64,000 bases of DNA, taken from assembly GCA_963811165.1 (NCBI GenBank), contig CAWEQH010000004.1:128001-192000 (forward strand). Reading direction: 5' to 3'. The notes under the pieces were generated by a model, which ran no database searches, was not told where the DNA came from, and saw only the letters and a program-made list of their open reading frames with translations. The position numbers and the translations under genes are program-made. The DNA is from an uncultured Nitrospiraceae bacterium. GTDB lineage: Bacteria; Nitrospirota; Thermodesulfovibrionia; Thermodesulfovibrionales; UBA6898. Each line of letters starts with the position of its first letter. Positions within the stretch are counted from its first letter, which is position 1. This document shows, piece by piece, positions 21,944 through 31,071 of this stretch.

Positions 21944-22951
21944 ATGGCAAAGGTACTGGTAAAACTGCGAAGCGGCGAACAGATCAAAGGTGACCTTCTG
22001 TCTTTAAACGCGGCCAGGCCTTCGTTTTATCTGGTCGCCGAGGAAGAGGGCGGGAAGGTCCATAATATTAACGTAAGCATGGACTCGGTGAAGGCCATCT
22101 TTTTTCTTAAGAAACAGGAGAAGGACGCCTCGGTCGTCCACACCGAGACCATAGAGCAGTCTGTTGTTGCAGGTCTGCACGGGTTTCGGCTCGACGTGGA
22201 GTTCAAAGACGGTGAGATGGTTCACGGCTCGGCGCATAAATACAACCCCTCGGACAAGGGCTTTTATATGGTGCCTCTTAATCCCGCCGAAAGATATGAT
22301 CGCATGTACATCAATGCCGCGTGGGTGAAAAACGTGGACAGCAGAAGACTCATGGGGGATATCCTGCTCGACCAGAAAAAGATAACTGAGCAGCAGCTGA
22401 CCCACGCCTTAGAGTATCAGCGGGCGCAAAAAGAAAAAAAGATAGGCACGATCCTCAAAGAACACGATTATGTTACCCATGAGCAATTGGAAGAGGCCCT
22501 CAAAAAGCAAGGCGGACAGACAAAATTCCTTGGCGAGATTCTGCTCGAAGCCGGGTATATCACGGAAGAACAGCTGGCATTCGCCCTGGACATACAGCGG
22601 AAAAACAGGAAGAAGAAACTGGGCCGCATCCTGGTGGAACTCAGGTATCTTGCTCCAAACGATATATGCATCGCCCTGTCTGCCCAGTTGCAGCTGCCAT
22701 GGGCGGATTTGTCCTCAGCCGATATCCAATCGGACGTTGCCACAGCTCTGCCGGAGGAGGTCGCCCGCCGCCTCCAGGTCATCCCTATTGAACGGCAAGC
22801 AAATACCCTTGTAATTGCCAGCGCCGAGCCCCGGGAGCCTGGGTTAAAGGGTGAAATCGGCCGGTACACGGACCTCCGGATCGAGCTGGCGGTTGCTTAC
22901 GAGGACTATATAGAAGCGGTCATCAACCGGTTCTATCCGGGCAGGAATTGA
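21944..22951 (+). CDS. Protein with a duplicated N-terminal beta domain, four MshEN-like repeats and a GspE-N-like tail; no ATPase domain
   Basis: RLMGDILL, KIGTILK, FLGEILLEAGYIT and KLGRILVE repeats. Confidence 0.75.
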   Translation: MAKVLVKLRSGEQIKGDLLSLNAARPSFYLVAEEEGGKVHNINVSMDSVKAIFFLKKQEKDASVVHTETIEQSVVAGLHGFRLDVEFKDGEMVHGSAHKYNPSDKGFYMVPLNPAERYDRMYINAAWVKNVDSRRLMGDILLDQKKITEQQLTHALEYQRAQKEKKIGTILKEHDYVTHEQLEEALKKQGGQTKFLGEILLEAGYITEEQLAFALDIQRKNRKKKLGRILVELRYLAPNDICIALSAQLQLPWADLSSADIQSDVATALPEEVARRLQVIPIERQANTLVIASAEPREPGLKGEIGRYTDLRIELAVAYEDYIEAVINRFYPGRN

Positions 22952-24797: not shown

Positions 24798-24826
24798 TTG
24801 ACAAGCGCCGAGGGTTGCGCGAGAAT
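24798..24826 (+). promoter_or_regulatory. Sigma70 promoter of the ALDH operon
   Basis: TTGACA-17 nt-GAGAAT. Confidence 0.5.
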
Positions 24827-24878
24827 TTGGGCATGAATCCCCGGTCTTTTTCCGATTTTCTCAAGGGTTGGGAGGTGC

Positions 24879-26372
24879 TTGGTGAAAACGATCGTGAAGA
24901 ATTTCATTGACGGACAATGGGTGGACTCGATTGCCGGGGAGGCCTTCGAACGCATCAACCCGGCGGATACGTCGGAGGTCGTTGCGGTCGTCAGCAGGGC
25001 AGACAGGCCCGACGTCGACACGGCTGTCGGCGCAGCGAAGGCGGCGTTTGGCGGCTGGAGACATACCCCGCCGCCAAAAAGGGGAGAGATACTTTTCAGG
25101 GCGGGCGAGATACTTACGAGGAGGAAAGAAGAACTCGGCGCGCTTATGACCAAGGAGATGGGCAAGGTCCTGCCCGAAGCGCTCGGGGACGTGCAGGAGG
25201 CCATAGACATGGCCTTTTATATGGCGGGGGAAGGCAGAAGGCTTTCAGGTGAAACGATCCCCTCGGAACTTCCCGATAAGGACTGTAAGTCCATACGCGT
25301 GCCCGTTGGGGTATGCGGCCTGATTACGCCCTGGAACTTCCCCATGGCCATACCGGCCTGGAAGATCATGCCTGCCCTTATCTCGGGCAACACTGTGGTT
25401 TTTAAGCCAAGCAGTTACACGCCCGCCTGCGCTTCGAAACTCGTAGAGACATTTCAGGAGGCCGGCCTGCCGAAGGGGGTTTTGAATCTCGTAAACGGCA
25501 GCGGTGAAGGGACCGGGAACTATCTCGCTTCGCATGCCGGCATAGACGCTCTGTCTTTTACGGGTTCGACCGCGGTCGGGCTGGGGATCGCAAAGACCTG
25601 CTCAGAGAACGGCAAGAAGGTATCTTGCGAGATGGGCGGGAAAAACGCCATCATCGTCATGGACGACGCTGACCTGGACCTTGCGGTCGAAGGTGCGATA
25701 TGGGGCGGGTTCGGGACGAGCGGTCAAAGGTGTACGTCGTCAAGCCGCATAGTCGTACACCGGAAGGTCTACGATATGTTCCTTCAGATGTTCTCTGCGG
25801 CCGCATCAAAGCTGAGACTCGGAAACGGACTCGATAAAAATACCGACGTAGGTCCTGTCGTAAACGAGACTCAGATGAAGCGGATACTCGACTTCATAGA
25901 GATCGGAAAGAAAGAAGGGGCCAAAGTGGTAACGGGGGGCAATGCCTGCAGGGAAGGCGAATGCGGGAGAGGATACTTCATCCGGCCTACAATCTTTTCC
26001 GGGGTCGCCCCCGGCATGAGGATCGCGCAGGAGGAGATCTTCGGCCCTGTGGTGGCGGTGATCATGGCAGAGGACCTGCAGGACGCGATACGGATAGTCA
26101 ACGGCACCTCTTACGGACTTGTATCTTCGATATACACGAGGGACGTCAATAAGTCCGCCGTCGCAGAGCGCGAGCTCGATACCGGCATTGTCTATATCAA
26201 TGCCTCAACGATAGGCGCAGAGATCCAGCTTCCCTTCGGCGGGACGAAAAAAAGCGGCTTTGGACATGAAGAGGCCGGAGGAAGGGGGGGCGCCCTCGAT
26301 ATGTTTACTAAGTGGAAGGTGATCTACAGGGACTTCAGCGGCAGGCTCCAGAAGGCCCAGATCGACAGATAA
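24879..26372 (+). CDS. Aldehyde dehydrogenase family protein (possible glutamate-5-semialdehyde dehydrogenase)
   Basis: ITPWNFP, FTGS, EMGGKN, GQRCT, EEIFGP and PFGG motifs; substrate inferred from context only. Confidence 0.92.
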   Translation: MVKTIVKNFIDGQWVDSIAGEAFERINPADTSEVVAVVSRADRPDVDTAVGAAKAAFGGWRHTPPPKRGEILFRAGEILTRRKEELGALMTKEMGKVLPEALGDVQEAIDMAFYMAGEGRRLSGETIPSELPDKDCKSIRVPVGVCGLITPWNFPMAIPAWKIMPALISGNTVVFKPSSYTPACASKLVETFQEAGLPKGVLNLVNGSGEGTGNYLASHAGIDALSFTGSTAVGLGIAKTCSENGKKVSCEMGGKNAIIVMDDADLDLAVEGAIWGGFGTSGQRCTSSSRIVVHRKVYDMFLQMFSAAASKLRLGNGLDKNTDVGPVVNETQMKRILDFIEIGKKEGAKVVTGGNACREGECGRGYFIRPTIFSGVAPGMRIAQEEIFGPVVAVIMAEDLQDAIRIVNGTSYGLVSSIYTRDVNKSAVAERELDTGIVYINASTIGAEIQLPFGGTKKSGFGHEEAGGRGGALDMFTKWKVIYRDFSGRLQKAQIDR

Positions 26373-26399
26373 CCGGATGGACAGGAGGTCAACAGCCGC

Positions 26400-27683
26400 A
26401 TGGACGATTATCTGAACAGGGCGAAAGCCGTTTTGACAAACGCGCTCGTCATTCACACCGGGATCGTCGCAAAGAAGGCCCACGGTATTTATGTCGAAGA
26501 TCTTGATGGCAGGAGGTACATGGACTTTACCTCCGGGCTTGCCACCGTAAATATCGGACACAACCACCCCGGCGTCGTCGAGGCGATAAAGAGACAGGCG
26601 GAAGATTTCGTTCATTCCGGGTGCATCTTTTATTACGAACCGCTTATAACGCTTGCCGAGAAGCTAAGGCAAGTGACGCCTCCGGGGATTGATATGTTCT
26701 TCTTCAGCAATTCCGGGGCCGAGGCTGTCGAAGGCGCGATAAAGCTTGCGCGCTATAGCACAGGCCGGCAGGGCATCGTCGCGTTTACCGGAGGGTTCCA
26801 CGGCAGGACCTTCGGTGCAATGAGTCTGACCACATCGAGCATGAGGTACCGAAGGATGTATCACCCCGTGGTCCCCTCGATCTACCACACTCCTTACCCC
26901 TATTGTTTCCGGTGTTTCTTTGGTCAACGGCCGGGCGCCTGCAACATGGATTGTTATACATACCTTGAGAGGCTCTTTAAACATCTCATCCCTCCTGAGG
27001 AAGTGGCCTGCATGATAATCGAACCGGTGCTCGGCGAAGGGGGTTACGTGCCGCCTCCGCCCGAGTTCCTTGCCAGACTCAGGGCCATCTGCGACAAATG
27101 GGGTATACTCCTTGTGCTCGATGAGGTTCAGGCAGGCATGGGAAGGACGGGAAAGTGGTTTGCGTCGGAGCATTTCGGGGTTGTCCCTGACATTATGACC
27201 GTCGCCAAAGGCATCGCCTCGGGCATGCCTCTTAGTGCGGTGGCCGCAAGAAAAGAGATCATGGAGAAATGGCCCAAAGGCGCGCACGGCACGACCTTCG
27301 GAGGCAACCCTGTTTCATGCGCCGCCGCCCTTGCGACAATCGGGATTATAGAGAAAGAGGGTCTTTTAGCAAAGGCCACTCAAACCGGCGGGCATGCCAT
27401 GACAAGATTGAGATCGATAAAGGAGAGGTATCCTGCAATCGGCGACGTAAGGGGACTCGGGCTCATGATAGGCATAGAGTTTGTCACGGCAGCGGGGGAG
27501 GCCGACACAGTGGGTCTTGGCAAAGTGATCCGGAACAGTCTTGAAAAAGGGCTGGTGCTTCTGGACTGCGGGGTTGATAAAAATATCATAAGGCTGGCCC
27601 CGCCGCTCATAGTGAAGAGGGAAGAAATAGATGCGGGACTCGATATATTCGAAGGTGCGCTCAACGCAACGTATGGGGGTTGA
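26400..27683 (+). CDS. Class III PLP aminotransferase (GabT/ornithine omega-aminotransferase-like)
   Basis: NSGAEAVE, FHGRT, EPVLGEGG, DEVQ, AKGIASG and HGTTFGGNP motifs. Confidence 0.93.
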   Translation: MDDYLNRAKAVLTNALVIHTGIVAKKAHGIYVEDLDGRRYMDFTSGLATVNIGHNHPGVVEAIKRQAEDFVHSGCIFYYEPLITLAEKLRQVTPPGIDMFFFSNSGAEAVEGAIKLARYSTGRQGIVAFTGGFHGRTFGAMSLTTSSMRYRRMYHPVVPSIYHTPYPYCFRCFFGQRPGACNMDCYTYLERLFKHLIPPEEVACMIIEPVLGEGGYVPPPPEFLARLRAICDKWGILLVLDEVQAGMGRTGKWFASEHFGVVPDIMTVAKGIASGMPLSAVAARKEIMEKWPKGAHGTTFGGNPVSCAAALATIGIIEKEGLLAKATQTGGHAMTRLRSIKERYPAIGDVRGLGLMIGIEFVTAAGEADTVGLGKVIRNSLEKGLVLLDCGVDKNIIRLAPPLIVKREEIDAGLDIFEGALNATYGG

Positions 27684-29024
27684 ATGATGAAGAGACAGAA
27701 GGTCCTTATCATGGGTGCCGCCGGCAGGGACTTCCATAACTTCAATATGGTTTACAGGGAGGACCCCTCCTATGAAGTTGCTGCATTTACCGCGGCCCAG
27801 ATACCCTTTATAGGAAGAAGAATGTATCCGGCCACCCTGGCAGGACCTCTTTATCCGGATGGGATCCCGATCTTTCCCGAAGAGGACCTTGCGACGCTTA
27901 TCCATCTGTACGGGATCGGGCAGGTGGTCTTTGCCTACAGTGATGTCACGCACGAACATGTTATGCACAAGGCCTCTCTCTGCCTTTCGCTGGGGACCGA
28001 TTTTGTTCTGCTCGGCCCTGACAAGACAATGCTCGAATCGACACTGCCCGTCATCTCCGTATGTTCGGTAAGGACGGGATGCGGAAAGAGTGGAATGACG
28101 AGATATGTCCTTGGAGTGCTTAAGAAAAGAGGAGTGGTCCCTGTTGCGATACGACATCCGATGCCCTATTGCGACCTGGTAAAAAGCCGCGTGCAGCGGT
28201 TCGGGAAGATGGAAGACCTAGACGACGGGAGCTGCACCATAGAGGAACGCGAAGAATTCGAGCCGCTTATCAGGGCAGGCGTCCCCGTGTACGCCGGGGT
28301 CGATTATCGGGAGGTTTTGAAAGACGCCGAAAAAGAGGCCGGGGTCATTGTATGGGACGGGGGGAACAATGATATGCCCTTTTTAAGGTCCGGGCTTGAA
28401 ATAGTGGTCCTCGACCCTCACCGGCCCGGCCATGAGTTGTCTTTCCATCCGGGTGAAGCCAATTTAAGGAGGGCGGATATAGCGGTTATCAACAAGGTCG
28501 ATACCGCGGACGAGGGAAAGGTGAGAGAGGTCGAAAAAAACATCCGGAAGGTGAACCCGGTAGCGGTCATTGTATATACGACTTCACCCATAAGTGTCGA
28601 CTATCCCGGCAAGATCGCGGGAAAGAAGGTCCTCGTGGTAGAGGACGGACCGACGCTTACCCACGGCGGCATGAAATACGGGGCCGGGTTTCTGGCCGCA
28701 GAGAAATACTCGGCGGCCGAGATTGTCGACCCGCGTCCCTATGCGGTTGGTTCGATCAGAGAGACCCTCGAAAAATATCCCGATCTCAGGAGGGTGTTGC
28801 CTGCGATGGGGTACGCCCCGGAGCAGATAAGAGAACTGAAAGAGACGATAGAGCGCGCGCAGGCAGACCTTGTGCTGGTCGCAACGCCCACCGACCTGCG
28901 CCGGCTGCTGGAGCTTAATAAAGATTCCGTGCGCGTCAGTTACGAAATAGAGGAGCTTGACGGTATGGAGCTGAAAGGGTGCATAGAGGGCTTCATCGAC
29001 AGCCATCTCCATGCTGCGAAATAG
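27684..29024 (+). CDS. P-loop protein of the cyclic 2,3-diphosphoglycerate synthase-related family; probable arginine synthetase (ArcE-like)
   Basis: MGAAGRDFHNFN, VRTGCGKS, RHPMPY, TIEEREEFEP, WDGGNND and EDGPTLTHGG motifs; adjacent to carbamate kinase. Confidence 0.8.
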   Translation: MMKRQKVLIMGAAGRDFHNFNMVYREDPSYEVAAFTAAQIPFIGRRMYPATLAGPLYPDGIPIFPEEDLATLIHLYGIGQVVFAYSDVTHEHVMHKASLCLSLGTDFVLLGPDKTMLESTLPVISVCSVRTGCGKSGMTRYVLGVLKKRGVVPVAIRHPMPYCDLVKSRVQRFGKMEDLDDGSCTIEEREEFEPLIRAGVPVYAGVDYREVLKDAEKEAGVIVWDGGNNDMPFLRSGLEIVVLDPHRPGHELSFHPGEANLRRADIAVINKVDTADEGKVREVEKNIRKVNPVAVIVYTTSPISVDYPGKIAGKKVLVVEDGPTLTHGGMKYGAGFLAAEKYSAAEIVDPRPYAVGSIRETLEKYPDLRRVLPAMGYAPEQIRELKETIERAQADLVLVATPTDLRRLLELNKDSVRVSYEIEELDGMELKGCIEGFIDSHLHAAK

Positions 29025-29090
29025 TGCGATGACATGGCATGGAACATCATTTTTTATTGCCGCCTTAAAGAAATGATTACATCGTTTATG

Positions 29091-29162
29091 AAATCCCTTC
29101 TGCCCTCCCTTTGTCAAAGTGAGGAATAATTCTCCTCTTTGGCAGAAGAGGGGGGAGATTTT
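29091..29162. repeat. REP-like palindromic element
   Basis: aaatcccttc...ccctttgtcaaagtg...ctcctctttggcagaagagggggga gattt: terminal inverted arms with two internal hairpins; a similar shorter element lies at 55527. Confidence 0.55.
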
Positions 29163-29188
29163 CTCATTCATGTGATACCCTTGATAGT

Positions 29189-30148
29189 ATGAACGGCACT
29201 GGGCGATACAGATTGTGCGTCGTTTCCCTTGGCGGCAACGCCCTGATAAGGAGGGGCGAGGAGGGCACAATCGAAGAACAGTTCGCACATACTCGCGCAT
29301 GCACGTCGCAGCTGTCACGTATGGTCAGGGACGGGTTCAGGATAGTAATTACCCATGGAAACGGCCCGATCGTCGGAAACATCGTAATCCGAAACGAAGC
29401 GGCGAAGAACACGGTCCCCCCCATGCCCCTTTATATCTGCGACGCCGACTCGGAGGGCGGCATCGGCTACATGATCCAGCAGACACTCTATAACAGCCTC
29501 AGAGGCATTCGGGAGGTGCGTGGCGTGGTCACGGTCATCACCCAGGTCGTTGTCGACAAGAAAGACCGTGCCTTTGAAATACCGTCAAAACCGATAGGAC
29601 CCTTCTACACTGAGGACGAGGCGGCCGAACTGGAAAAGTCGAGGGGGTGGATCTTGAGGGAAGACAGCGGCAGAGGCTATAGAAGGGTTGTCCCGTCGCC
29701 CCGGCCGAAGAAGATAATCGAGACGGAGGTCATCAGGCAGCTCACTCAATCTGGCGTCATTACGATCGCGGCCGGAGGGGGCGGCGTACCGGTCGTCGAA
29801 CTGGCATCGGGCGATCTTCAGGGAGTGGATGCGGTTGTGGACAAGGACCTTGCGAGCAGTCTCCTTGCGATGGATCTGGGTGCCGAATGTTTCATCAACC
29901 TTACCCAGGTCGACAACGTCTACCTCGATTACGGAAGGGCCGGCCAGAGGGCGCTTCGTGATGTCGGTCTGGAAGAGATCAGCGCGTACTACGAGCAGGG
30001 CCATTTTCCGCCGGGAAGCATGGGACCGAAGATAGAGGCGGCCATCGAGTTTCTTCGTGCCGGAGGTAAAGAAGTGATCATCACGACCCCGGAACTTGTC
30101 GGAGAAGCGATGCAGGGAAGGGCAGGGACGAGGCTAAGGGCGACTTGA
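29189..30148 (+). CDS. arcC: Carbamate kinase
   Basis: LGGNAL, THGNGP, GYRRVVPSP, GGGGVPV, AVVDKD and GSMGPKI motifs. Confidence 0.95.
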   Translation: MNGTGRYRLCVVSLGGNALIRRGEEGTIEEQFAHTRACTSQLSRMVRDGFRIVITHGNGPIVGNIVIRNEAAKNTVPPMPLYICDADSEGGIGYMIQQTLYNSLRGIREVRGVVTVITQVVVDKKDRAFEIPSKPIGPFYTEDEAAELEKSRGWILREDSGRGYRRVVPSPRPKKIIETEVIRQLTQSGVITIAAGGGGVPVVELASGDLQGVDAVVDKDLASSLLAMDLGAECFINLTQVDNVYLDYGRAGQRALRDVGLEEISAYYEQGHFPPGSMGPKIEAAIEFLRAGGKEVIITTPELVGEAMQGRAGTRLRAT

Positions 30149-30219: not shown

Positions 30220-31071
30220 ATGCCTAAGAAGACAGAAACTCATGCACGGCTGACAAAGGACGAAAGGGCCTTTTCGTTCATTGCGCTCAATGACCGGGAA
30301 GGTAAACCGAGGAAACAGGGTATTACGGAGATGAGAGGCCCATACTATACGCCCATGGGAAAGCGCTATCTTGAAGACATCCTTGAGACCATGGGGGCTT
30401 ATGTCGATATCCTTAAGTTTGCGGGAGGGTCCTTCAGTCTCATGCCCCGCAAAGCGGTAAAGGAACTCATCGATCTATGCCACAGGTACGATGTGCAGGT
30501 CGACACGGGAGGCTTTATCGAGCATGTGCTTACGCTCGGTGCAGGCATGGTCGATCGCTATATCGAGGAATGCAGGAGCCTTGAATTCGATATAGTCGAG
30601 ATATCGGGCGGCTTTCTGAGTATCCCCGCAGATGACCTTGTCCGTATAACCGAAAAAGTGCGGAAAAGGGGGATGAAGCCCAAAGCCGAGGTGGGCATCC
30701 AGTTCGGTGCAGGGGGAGCGAGCACGGTCGGGGAACTCGAGGCCGAAGGGACAGGGGATGTCGACTGGGCGGTCATGAGGGCGAAGAAGCATCTCGATGC
30801 CGGCGCATATATGATCATGATCGAATCAGAGGGCATAACAGAAAGCGTCAACACCTGGAGGACGGATGTGATCTCCAAATTCATCCGGGAGCTGGGGATC
30901 GAAAAGACGATGTTCGAGGCCGCTGACCCGGAGGTGTTCAACTGGTATATCAAAAACTACGGGCCGGAAATGAATCTTTTTGTCGACCATAGCCAGATCG
31001 TGCTTCTTGAATCCCTGAGGTCGGGCATCTGGGGGACGAAAAAACCTCTGGGGAAGGGTGTTGACCTATAA
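30220..31071 (+). CDS. Phosphosulfolactate synthase (ComA/HSA32-like) family protein; probable terminal frameshift
   Basis: KPRKQGITEMRGPYY, LKFAGGS, MIESEGITE and NLFVDHSQ motifs. Removing one A at 31039-31044 gives TKNLWGRVLTYKGR ending at 31081. Confidence 0.85.
   Translation: MPKKTETHARLTKDERAFSFIALNDREGKPRKQGITEMRGPYYTPMGKRYLEDILETMGAYVDILKFAGGSFSLMPRKAVKELIDLCHRYDVQVDTGGFIEHVLTLGAGMVDRYIEECRSLEFDIVEISGGFLSIPADDLVRITEKVRKRGMKPKAEVGIQFGAGGASTVGELEAEGTGDVDWAVMRAKKHLDAGAYMIMIESEGITESVNTWRTDVISKFIRELGIEKTMFEAADPEVFNWYIKNYGPEMNLFVDHSQIVLLESLRSGIWGTKKPLGKGVDL

Follow-up and report, generated by a model that had tools for sequence, protein, structure and literature searches.

Organization of the arcE locus

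A 64,000-nucleotide stretch of the genome of an uncultured Nitrospiraceae bacterium (contig CAWEQH010000004.1, positions 128,001 to 192,000; hereafter the window) was analyzed for a run of four genes encoding an aldehyde dehydrogenase (ALDH), an omega-aminotransferase, a protein of the ArcE arginine synthetase family and the carbamate kinase ArcC (Table 1). Together with an ornithine carbamoyltransferase (OTC, ArgF) encoded elsewhere in the genome, they are proposed to form a route from arginine to glutamate. A preliminary description of the locus had reported four co-directional genes with the first three tightly coupled, and this layout was confirmed. All open reading frames were intact and on the + strand, with intergenic gaps of 27 nt, 0 nt (the aminotransferase stop codon abuts the arcE start codon) and 164 nt. 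An alternative ALDH start is possible at GTG 24882, 6 nt past a GGAGG motif (24871-24875). The carbamate kinase call also stood, with TIGR00746 matched above its cut-off, and arcC was the sole carbamate kinase copy found in the genome (single tblastn match).

The sigma-70-like site before the ALDH gene was only suggestive as a promoter, because the region contained 6 promoter-type sites against 4.6 ± 2.5 in shuffled sequences. The repeat between arcE and arcC, for which a hairpin was predicted at 29130-29157, had five other matches in the genome (83-93% identity) and could be a terminator or a processing site. In relatives such as loci L008, L014, L021 and L107, arcC abuts arcE. Downstream, a ComA/phosphosulfolactate-synthase-like gene (30220-31071, +; PF02679, below the TIGR03849 cut-off) follows arcC on the same strand after 71 nt, an adjacency that, among the other loci, only the two closest relatives (L049 and L050) showed. 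Upstream, a gene at 21944-22951 (+), flanked by dapA and a dethiobiotin-synthase-like gene, encodes DUF6982 with tandem MshEN-type c-di-GMP-binding motifs.

Table 1. Features of the arcE locus (positions within the window)
Feature	Position	Strand	Remarks
Candidate sigma-70-like promoter (weak evidence)	24798..24826	+	TTGACA-17-GAGAAT, 10/12 match
NAD(P)-dependent ALDH, ALDHTt/ALDH7-like with C-terminal arm	24879..26372	+	497 aa; PF00171
Class III pyridoxal-phosphate omega-aminotransferase, PRK08117 subfamily	26400..27683	+	427 aa; NCBIfam 626 bits, cut-off 574
ArcE, arginine synthetase / ATP-forming arginine deiminase family (assigned)	27684..29024	+	446 aa P-loop protein
Copy of dispersed hairpin-forming repeat between arcE and arcC	29085..29153		about 65 bp
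Carbamate kinase ArcC	29189..30148	+	TIGR00746 383.9 bits, cut-off 358.25

Assignment of the third gene to the ArcE family

The product of the third gene (gene 3) carries the motifs GAAGRDFHNF at residue 11 and RTGCGKS at residue 130, and no family of Pfam or NCBIfam matched it. In the literature found, ArcE has been characterized in one hyperthermophilic archaeon only, Thermococcus kodakarensis, as TK2200. A reference gene was located among 62 Thermococcus genomes by the published TK2200 primers. A first scan of the collection with the forward primer gave no match, the reverse primer matched nine of the 62 genomes, and both primers matched with 0 mismatches at two of the five loci examined; the reference is taken to be TK2200 on the basis of these primers, with two genomes matching both. 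Gene 3 was identical to it at 266 of 435 positions (61%, 553 bits, E 0.0, ungapped), while a confirmed cyclic 2,3-diphosphoglycerate synthetase (cDPGS) gave 24% local identity and 35 bits. Against the cDPGS structures 8ORK and 9SXB, gene 3 reached E 1.5e-4 over 119 aa, compared with E 3.7e-190 for a true Thermococcus cDPGS. With its 446 aa, gene 3 also lay within the ArcE threshold given in the legend of Fig. S10 of PMC11032458 (BLASTP E < 1e-100 to TK2200, length > 380 aa).

A maximum-likelihood tree of 52 rows, comprising matches with at least 400 aligned residues and four of the Thermococcus loci, placed gene 3 within the ArcE clade and apart from cDPGS, with an SH-aLRT support of 100 on the separating branch. 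The outgroup was confirmed as cDPGS, and its branch was long and fully supported. Among 144 columns conserved at a level of at least 95% in 31 non-cassette ArcEs, 140 were retained in gene 3, and the other four carried the substitutions A>T, A>S, D>G and Y>F. The predicted structure (pLDDT 91) matched cDPGS and LpxK (4EHY, E 4.9e-9); cDPGS was the top structural match, with a TM score of about 0.43 and 16% identity, indicating a distantly related P-loop fold. A relation to the LpxK-like fold has also been reported for TK2200 (PMC11032458). No ArcE structure was found in the PDB, and plasmid homologues and 50%-cluster representatives included no characterized close relative.

Based on these comparisons, gene 3 is assigned to ArcE and not to cDPGS, which upheld the ArcE-like call of the preliminary description in both identity and phylogeny. 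Arginine is its likely substrate, because it falls in the ArcE family and TK2200 takes L-arginine and rejects D-arginine, agmatine and guanidine (PMC11032458). The database label "cDPG synthase/GTPase" on the ArcE family, including its Nitrospirota homologues, is regarded as a mis-annotation.

Recurrence of the four genes

The phylum was sampled with 301 genomes, and ArcE was found in 30 of them including the present one, with none among five genomes of the same family. The aminotransferase gene directly preceded arcE in 12 of the 29 other ArcE genomes, so that the linkage about which the preliminary description had asked proved to be conserved. All four genes stood in the same order in 8/29, the aminotransferase-arcE-arcC part lay at a contig end in 1/29, and arcE was alone or fragmented in 10/29. 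A close match to the aminotransferase was present in 34 of the 301 genomes, and all 13 members of the cassette clade adjoined arcE. In the metagenome set, which covered 80 of 249 ALDH loci, all four genes were present in 11 loci, some of them near-duplicates, and arcE followed the aminotransferase gene in 14 of the 19 loci with at least 1.5 kb past an intact aminotransferase gene. Among the matches listed, flanking genes varied between genomes carrying the same order. The four genes behave as a cassette, because the flanking genes differ while the order recurs, and their linkage is more than chance.

The GC content at third codon positions of the four genes was 0.63-0.70, like that of neighboring genes. 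A recent transfer of the cassette was considered and dropped on this ground, although arcE was missing from the same-family genomes. In comparison with same-order cassettes, identity was 52-57% for ArcE and carbamate kinase and 67-77% for ALDH and aminotransferase. A mosaic origin by in-place replacement of arcE-arcC was likewise dropped, since the other group has a long stem and most cassette ArcEs form one supported clade. The stem branch of 0.43 leading to the ArcEs of L008-L010, L018, L081, L083, L084 and L097 hints at faster change or altered function. Among the matches listed, a gene for a rubrerythrin-like protein and one for a PAP2-glycosyltransferase fusion were inserted in the cassette of one lineage (L053:8582-12797, L054, L113). 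In family f25 (L016, L017, L019, L020, L026), arcE occurred without arcC beside acetyl-CoA-synthetase-like and pyruvate-dehydrogenase-like genes.

Partner genes in the rest of the genome

In agreement with the preliminary description, no OTC or deiminase gene was found in the window. The search for argF, arcA, argG and argH was extended to the whole genome, which is 95% complete. One OTC gene was found, on contig C10 directly after argD (an argD-argF operon) and unlinked to the cassette, and the deiminase family PF02274 had no match anywhere. The genes pyrB, argG, argH, carB and putA were all found; since argG, argH and carB are present, ArcE is not required for arginine biosynthesis. A single OTC-grade gene, never beside arcE, was the rule in 30/30 ArcE genomes (fragmented in two). 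The genes expected for the arginine synthetase pathway were thus present: ArcE, carbamate kinase and an unlinked OTC were found, and ArcA was not. Forward carbamoyl transfer is favored by OTC, and some single OTCs work in both directions (PMC4581275). As the sole OTC available, here linked to argD and in all ArcE genomes a single copy, ArgF is probably borrowed from arginine biosynthesis, one of the two options that the preliminary description had offered.

The other option was a different substrate; its agmatine form was weakened, given that TK2200 rejects it and that no arginase/agmatinase-family gene and no putrescine carbamoyltransferase were found in the genome. A second carbamoyltransferase for another ureido compound was not found either. 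On contig C10, an ornithine-decarboxylase-like gene is followed by a spermidine-synthase-like gene; both were called by motif, neither exceeding a family cut-off. A link to cyanophycin was rejected, as no cyanophycin synthetase above cut-off was detected in the genome. The cassette contains no arginine uptake gene, and ArcD-type and YfcC/DcuC-type antiporters were each found in 0/13 cassette genomes.

Aldehyde dehydrogenase

The best PDB match of the ALDH was Thermus thermophilus ALDHTt (6FKU, E 8.6e-117, C-terminal tail included). The LQxAQ "crook" tail and the GAE anchor loop are shared with ALDHTt and ALDH7, although the tail is shorter than that of ALDHTt. The C-terminal arm of ALDHTt was tied to ALDH family 7 by its authors, and the accessible text gives no physiological substrate (PMC6127216). 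Residues E107, F154, W161, R284-C285-T286, G446-A447 and F453 agree in identity and spacing with Glu121, Phe168, Trp175, Arg301-Cys302-Thr303, Gly461-Ala462 and Phe468 of the ALDH7 reference set, so that this set and the crook tail were found complete, with residues matched by numbering and local spacing rather than by direct alignment. These nine residues line the aminoadipate site of human ALDH7A1, where the Glu and the Arg/Thr/Gly-Ala residues bind the alpha-amino and alpha-carboxyl groups (PMC11362210). All nine were present in 46 of 55 aligned ALDH relatives.

None of the NCBIfam ALDH models was reached. The scores were 420 against a cut-off of 660 bits (TIGR01237) and 444 against 648 bits (PRK03137) for the RocA/PutA models, and 371 against 730 bits for the piperideine-6-carboxylate model. 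The active site has Arg-Cys-Thr, compared with Lys-Cys-Ser in RocA/PutA, and the protein branched separately from the PutA of the genome. In five loci with three arrangements (L024, L025, L027, L054, L073), a proline dehydrogenase gene is part of the run. Additionally, 8 of the 12 other cassette genomes had a stand-alone proline dehydrogenase and no RocA/PutA-grade 1-pyrroline-5-carboxylate (P5C) dehydrogenase; in seven of these eight, the cassette-type ALDH or its fragment was the best TIGR01237 match. The retained ALDH7 site residues favor a semialdehyde with both an alpha-amino and an alpha-carboxyl group, and together with the proline dehydrogenase linkage they favor glutamate semialdehyde. 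The enzyme is thus predicted to be, likely, a glutamate-5-semialdehyde dehydrogenase.

In a sister clade, the ALDH gene adjoins a saccharopine-dehydrogenase-like gene (L157:4337-5419, L158, L176) or an aminotransferase and a glyoxalase-like gene (L139, L140:8725-9336), contexts that suggest a lysine catabolic route in other Nitrospirota. The ALDHs in these lysine contexts carry Ser at position 447 and branched apart as a supported clade of their own.

Aminotransferase

The aminotransferase exceeded the cut-off of PRK08117 (NF005993; Table 1) and fell below that of the TK2101/PH1423-type model PRK05769 (529 against 552 bits); its identity to a TK2101-like member of PRK05769 was 43%. Arg136 of the FHGRT motif, Glu213 of EGG, Lys270 and Arg398 are kept, and with them the carboxylate-binding Arg and the Glu-Arg switch of omega-transaminases. 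In the tree it belonged to a clade of its own, sister to Bacillus PRK08117-type enzymes (Peribacillus member), and it was remote from RocD (3RUY, 214 bits). Databases name it 4-aminobutyrate (GABA) aminotransferase, and the literature search found no tested substrate for the PRK08117 subfamily. A beta-alanine role like that of PydD was rejected, no pyrimidine-degradation genes recurring beside the cassette among the matches listed. By context only, the enzyme is predicted to be an ornithine delta-aminotransferase, because its gene lies between those with ArcE and amino-acid-semialdehyde dehydrogenase roles.

Two other arrangements of related genes were observed. In L160, L168 and L170:7418-8341, from genomes without arcE, Thr-Asp-type aminotransferases lie beside an arginase/agmatinase-family gene, possibly an arginase-based counterpart; L160 and L168 also hold 2-oxoacid:ferredoxin oxidoreductase genes. 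In Deinococcus radiodurans (L136:3927-8955), genes for a CoA transferase, a KamA-family radical SAM enzyme, an aminotransferase and a semialdehyde dehydrogenase are clustered, possibly for beta-lysine catabolism, and the literature search found no paper on this cluster.

Discussion

The identities of the genes, their family placement, their synteny and the presence or absence of partner genes were observed. We consider it reasonably probable, if well short of assured, that the four genes and the unlinked ArgF constitute an intracellular route from arginine to glutamate yielding two ATP, for which we infer every reaction, the flux direction and the co-transcription of the cassette. In the ArcE step, citrulline, ammonia and ATP would be formed from arginine, ADP and phosphate; the biosynthetic ArgF would run in reverse, from citrulline to ornithine and carbamoyl phosphate; and carbamate kinase would gain the second ATP from carbamoyl phosphate. 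The aminotransferase and the ALDH would then take ornithine through glutamate-5-semialdehyde to glutamate with formation of NAD(P)H. The predicted net reaction is Arg + 2 ADP + 2 Pi + 2-oxoglutarate + NAD(P)+ -> 2 Glu + 2 NH3 + CO2 + 2 ATP + NAD(P)H. The cassette would provide a sink for each product of the unfavorable reverse OTC step and replace the ornithine export of deiminase operons, so that it could do without a catabolic OTC and without an arginine/ornithine antiporter. Because the cassette has no transporter, it may draw on endogenous arginine when energy or nitrogen is limiting. TK2200 responds to ADP in a sigmoidal manner (PMC11032458), a property that would curb futile cycling against argG/argH if the cassette ArcE has it too.

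The cassette is a variant of the known arginine synthetase pathway, and the chemistry of each step is already known. In T. kodakarensis this pathway comprises ArcE TK2200, OTC TK0871, carbamate kinase TK2158 and ornithine aminotransferase TK2101 (PMC11032458, PMC13260591). Common to both are an ArcE with all core motifs, carbamate kinase, the lack of arginine deiminase and an available omega-aminotransferase. The present cassette differs in being bacterial and clustered, in an OTC that lies outside the cluster and is shared with a complete argD-argF, argG, argH and carB set, in an aminotransferase of another subfamily, and in the fate of the semialdehyde, which the ALDH would oxidize to glutamate but which becomes proline in T. 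kodakarensis. With the arginine deiminase pathway (arcA-arcB-arcC-arcD) it would share the conversion of arginine through citrulline to ornithine and carbamoyl phosphate and the ATP from carbamate kinase. Unlike that pathway, no ArcA, dedicated catabolic OTC, or ArcD- or YfcC-type antiporter was found, and ornithine would be oxidized in the cell with two ATP instead of one. RocD-RocA or PutA forms a route from ornithine to glutamate. The predicted chemistry of the last two steps is the same, but the cassette enzymes miss the RocA/PutA models and are distant from RocD, and no arginase was found. Bacterial ArcE homologues including Nitrospira have been listed (PMC11032458), and the role of ArcE in other organisms is described in the T. 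kodakarensis ArcE literature as unevaluated. A description of the cassette was not found in the accessible parts of that literature; Figures S2, S10 and S11 of PMC11032458 may already show such clusters, and the legend of Figure S2 names neither an aminotransferase nor an ALDH.

Several observations weigh against the arginine-to-glutamate route. Reverse OTC is disfavored, and running it beside argG/argH/carB risks a futile cycle. PutA is already encoded, which makes a second semialdehyde dehydrogenase redundant, and close ALDH relatives adjoin lysine-type genes. The linkage is incomplete: ALDH-aminotransferase-arcE occurred without any carbamate kinase match in 3/29 other ArcE genomes, arcE-arcC without ALDH and aminotransferase in 7/29, and 5 of the 19 informative metagenome loci had ALDH and aminotransferase without adjacent arcE. 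The genomes are related and 79-100% complete, so that counts are not independent and absences are no proof.

The aminotransferase is the weakest link. Asp93 of the Thr92/Asp93 pair of PH1423 reportedly binds the alpha-amino group of ornithine. The cassette enzyme has Cys-Ile-Phe in place of this Thr-Asp loop; the loop Asp was present in 0/22 cassette-clade enzymes, compared with its presence in the TK2101-like protein, PH1423 and 18/18 related Nitrospirota enzymes (18 of 21 second-tier aminotransferases compared). Moreover, Leu47 occupies the position that we take to be equivalent to Tyr85 of human ornithine aminotransferase. Tyr85 separates ornithine from GABA in the human enzyme (PMC13327489). 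An Asp or Glu at position 389 (21/22 cassette enzymes) was considered as a conceivable substitute alpha-amino binder. The enzyme may still act like the TK2101/PH1423 type despite these differences. Of the conversion of ornithine to glutamate proposed in the preliminary description, the part of the ALDH therefore stood, with glutamate semialdehyde as likely substrate, while ornithine as the aminotransferase substrate was not established.

These aminotransferase features, a PRK08117-type enzyme with a hydrophobic distal pocket and a GABA aminotransferase name in databases, fit an alternative in which ArcE and carbamate kinase act on arginine and the aminotransferase is of GABA/diamine type. Ornithine would then pass through putrescine, aminobutanal and GABA to succinate, or ArcE would take a guanidino acid without an alpha-amino group. 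The ornithine-decarboxylase-like gene on C10 would suit the former, but with the spermidine-synthase-like gene behind it the context is biosynthetic. The ALDH retains the Glu and Arg/Thr/Gly-Ala residues for alpha-amino and alpha-carboxyl groups, the Km of plant ALDH7 for aminobutanal is millimolar (PMC11362210), and proline dehydrogenase joins the gene run; ArcE shows no marked cassette-specific change, and there is no second carbamoyltransferase. We regard this alternative as unlikely.

Rather improbable in our estimate is a lysine module, in which the aminotransferase and ALDH would convert lysine through aminoadipate semialdehyde to aminoadipate, or serve lysine and ornithine alike, the locus being a basic-amino-acid cluster and not one linear pathway. 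The ALDH carries the site residues of the aminoadipate-semialdehyde dehydrogenases of family 7, sister ALDHs occur in the lysine-type contexts described above, and ALDH-aminotransferase pairs exist without adjacent arcE. Nevertheless, the Ser447 clade of those lysine-context enzymes is separate from the cassette ALDHs, no lysine-pathway gene recurred beside the cassette among the matches listed, and the proline dehydrogenase linkage favors a five-carbon semialdehyde.

A biosynthetic role at high ammonia, with cheap carbamoyl phosphate, arginine as a nitrogen or ATP buffer and the other two genes clearing excess ornithine, is given little credence. It would agree with the reversibility of ArcE (Keq about 10; PMC11032458), with the formation of carbamoyl phosphate by Pyrococcus carbamate kinase at high ammonium bicarbonate (PMC13260591) and with the lack of an arginine uptake gene. 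However, argG, argH and carB were found, the accessible text of the PNAS paper on ArcE argues for a catabolic role where argG/argH exist, and arginine synthesis would be countered by two enzymes of the same gene run that consume ornithine. That gene 3 is a cDPGS or GTPase with incidental neighbors, as its database names and top structural match would have it, is hardly credible in view of its bit scores, the long fully supported branch setting cDPGS apart and the conserved linkage to carbamate kinase.

A more far-reaching form of the arginine-to-glutamate route is tentative, and we would place it slightly below an even chance. By draining both products of ArgF, a mobile cassette would pull this enzyme backwards in a closed pathway free of transporters, in which endogenous arginine would yield glutamate, NADH and two ATP. 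Its aminotransferase would recognize ornithine in a third structural way. Its ALDHTt-like enzyme, without relation to RocA/PutA, would oxidize glutamate semialdehyde and also serve proline dehydrogenases that stand alone.

With known chemistry throughout, these results are useful to the specialist rather than startling. They correct the "cDPG synthase/GTPase" label on Nitrospirota homologues and offer a bacterial test set for ArcE, in which it can be asked whether flux through an anabolic OTC runs in the catabolic direction in vivo and which substrates PRK08117 aminotransferases use. If the prediction for the ALDH is true, the tailed ALDHTt family would gain a physiological substrate, and ALDHTt-like enzymes would be an overlooked class of glutamate-semialdehyde dehydrogenases that supplies the missing P5C dehydrogenase where a genome has proline dehydrogenase alone.

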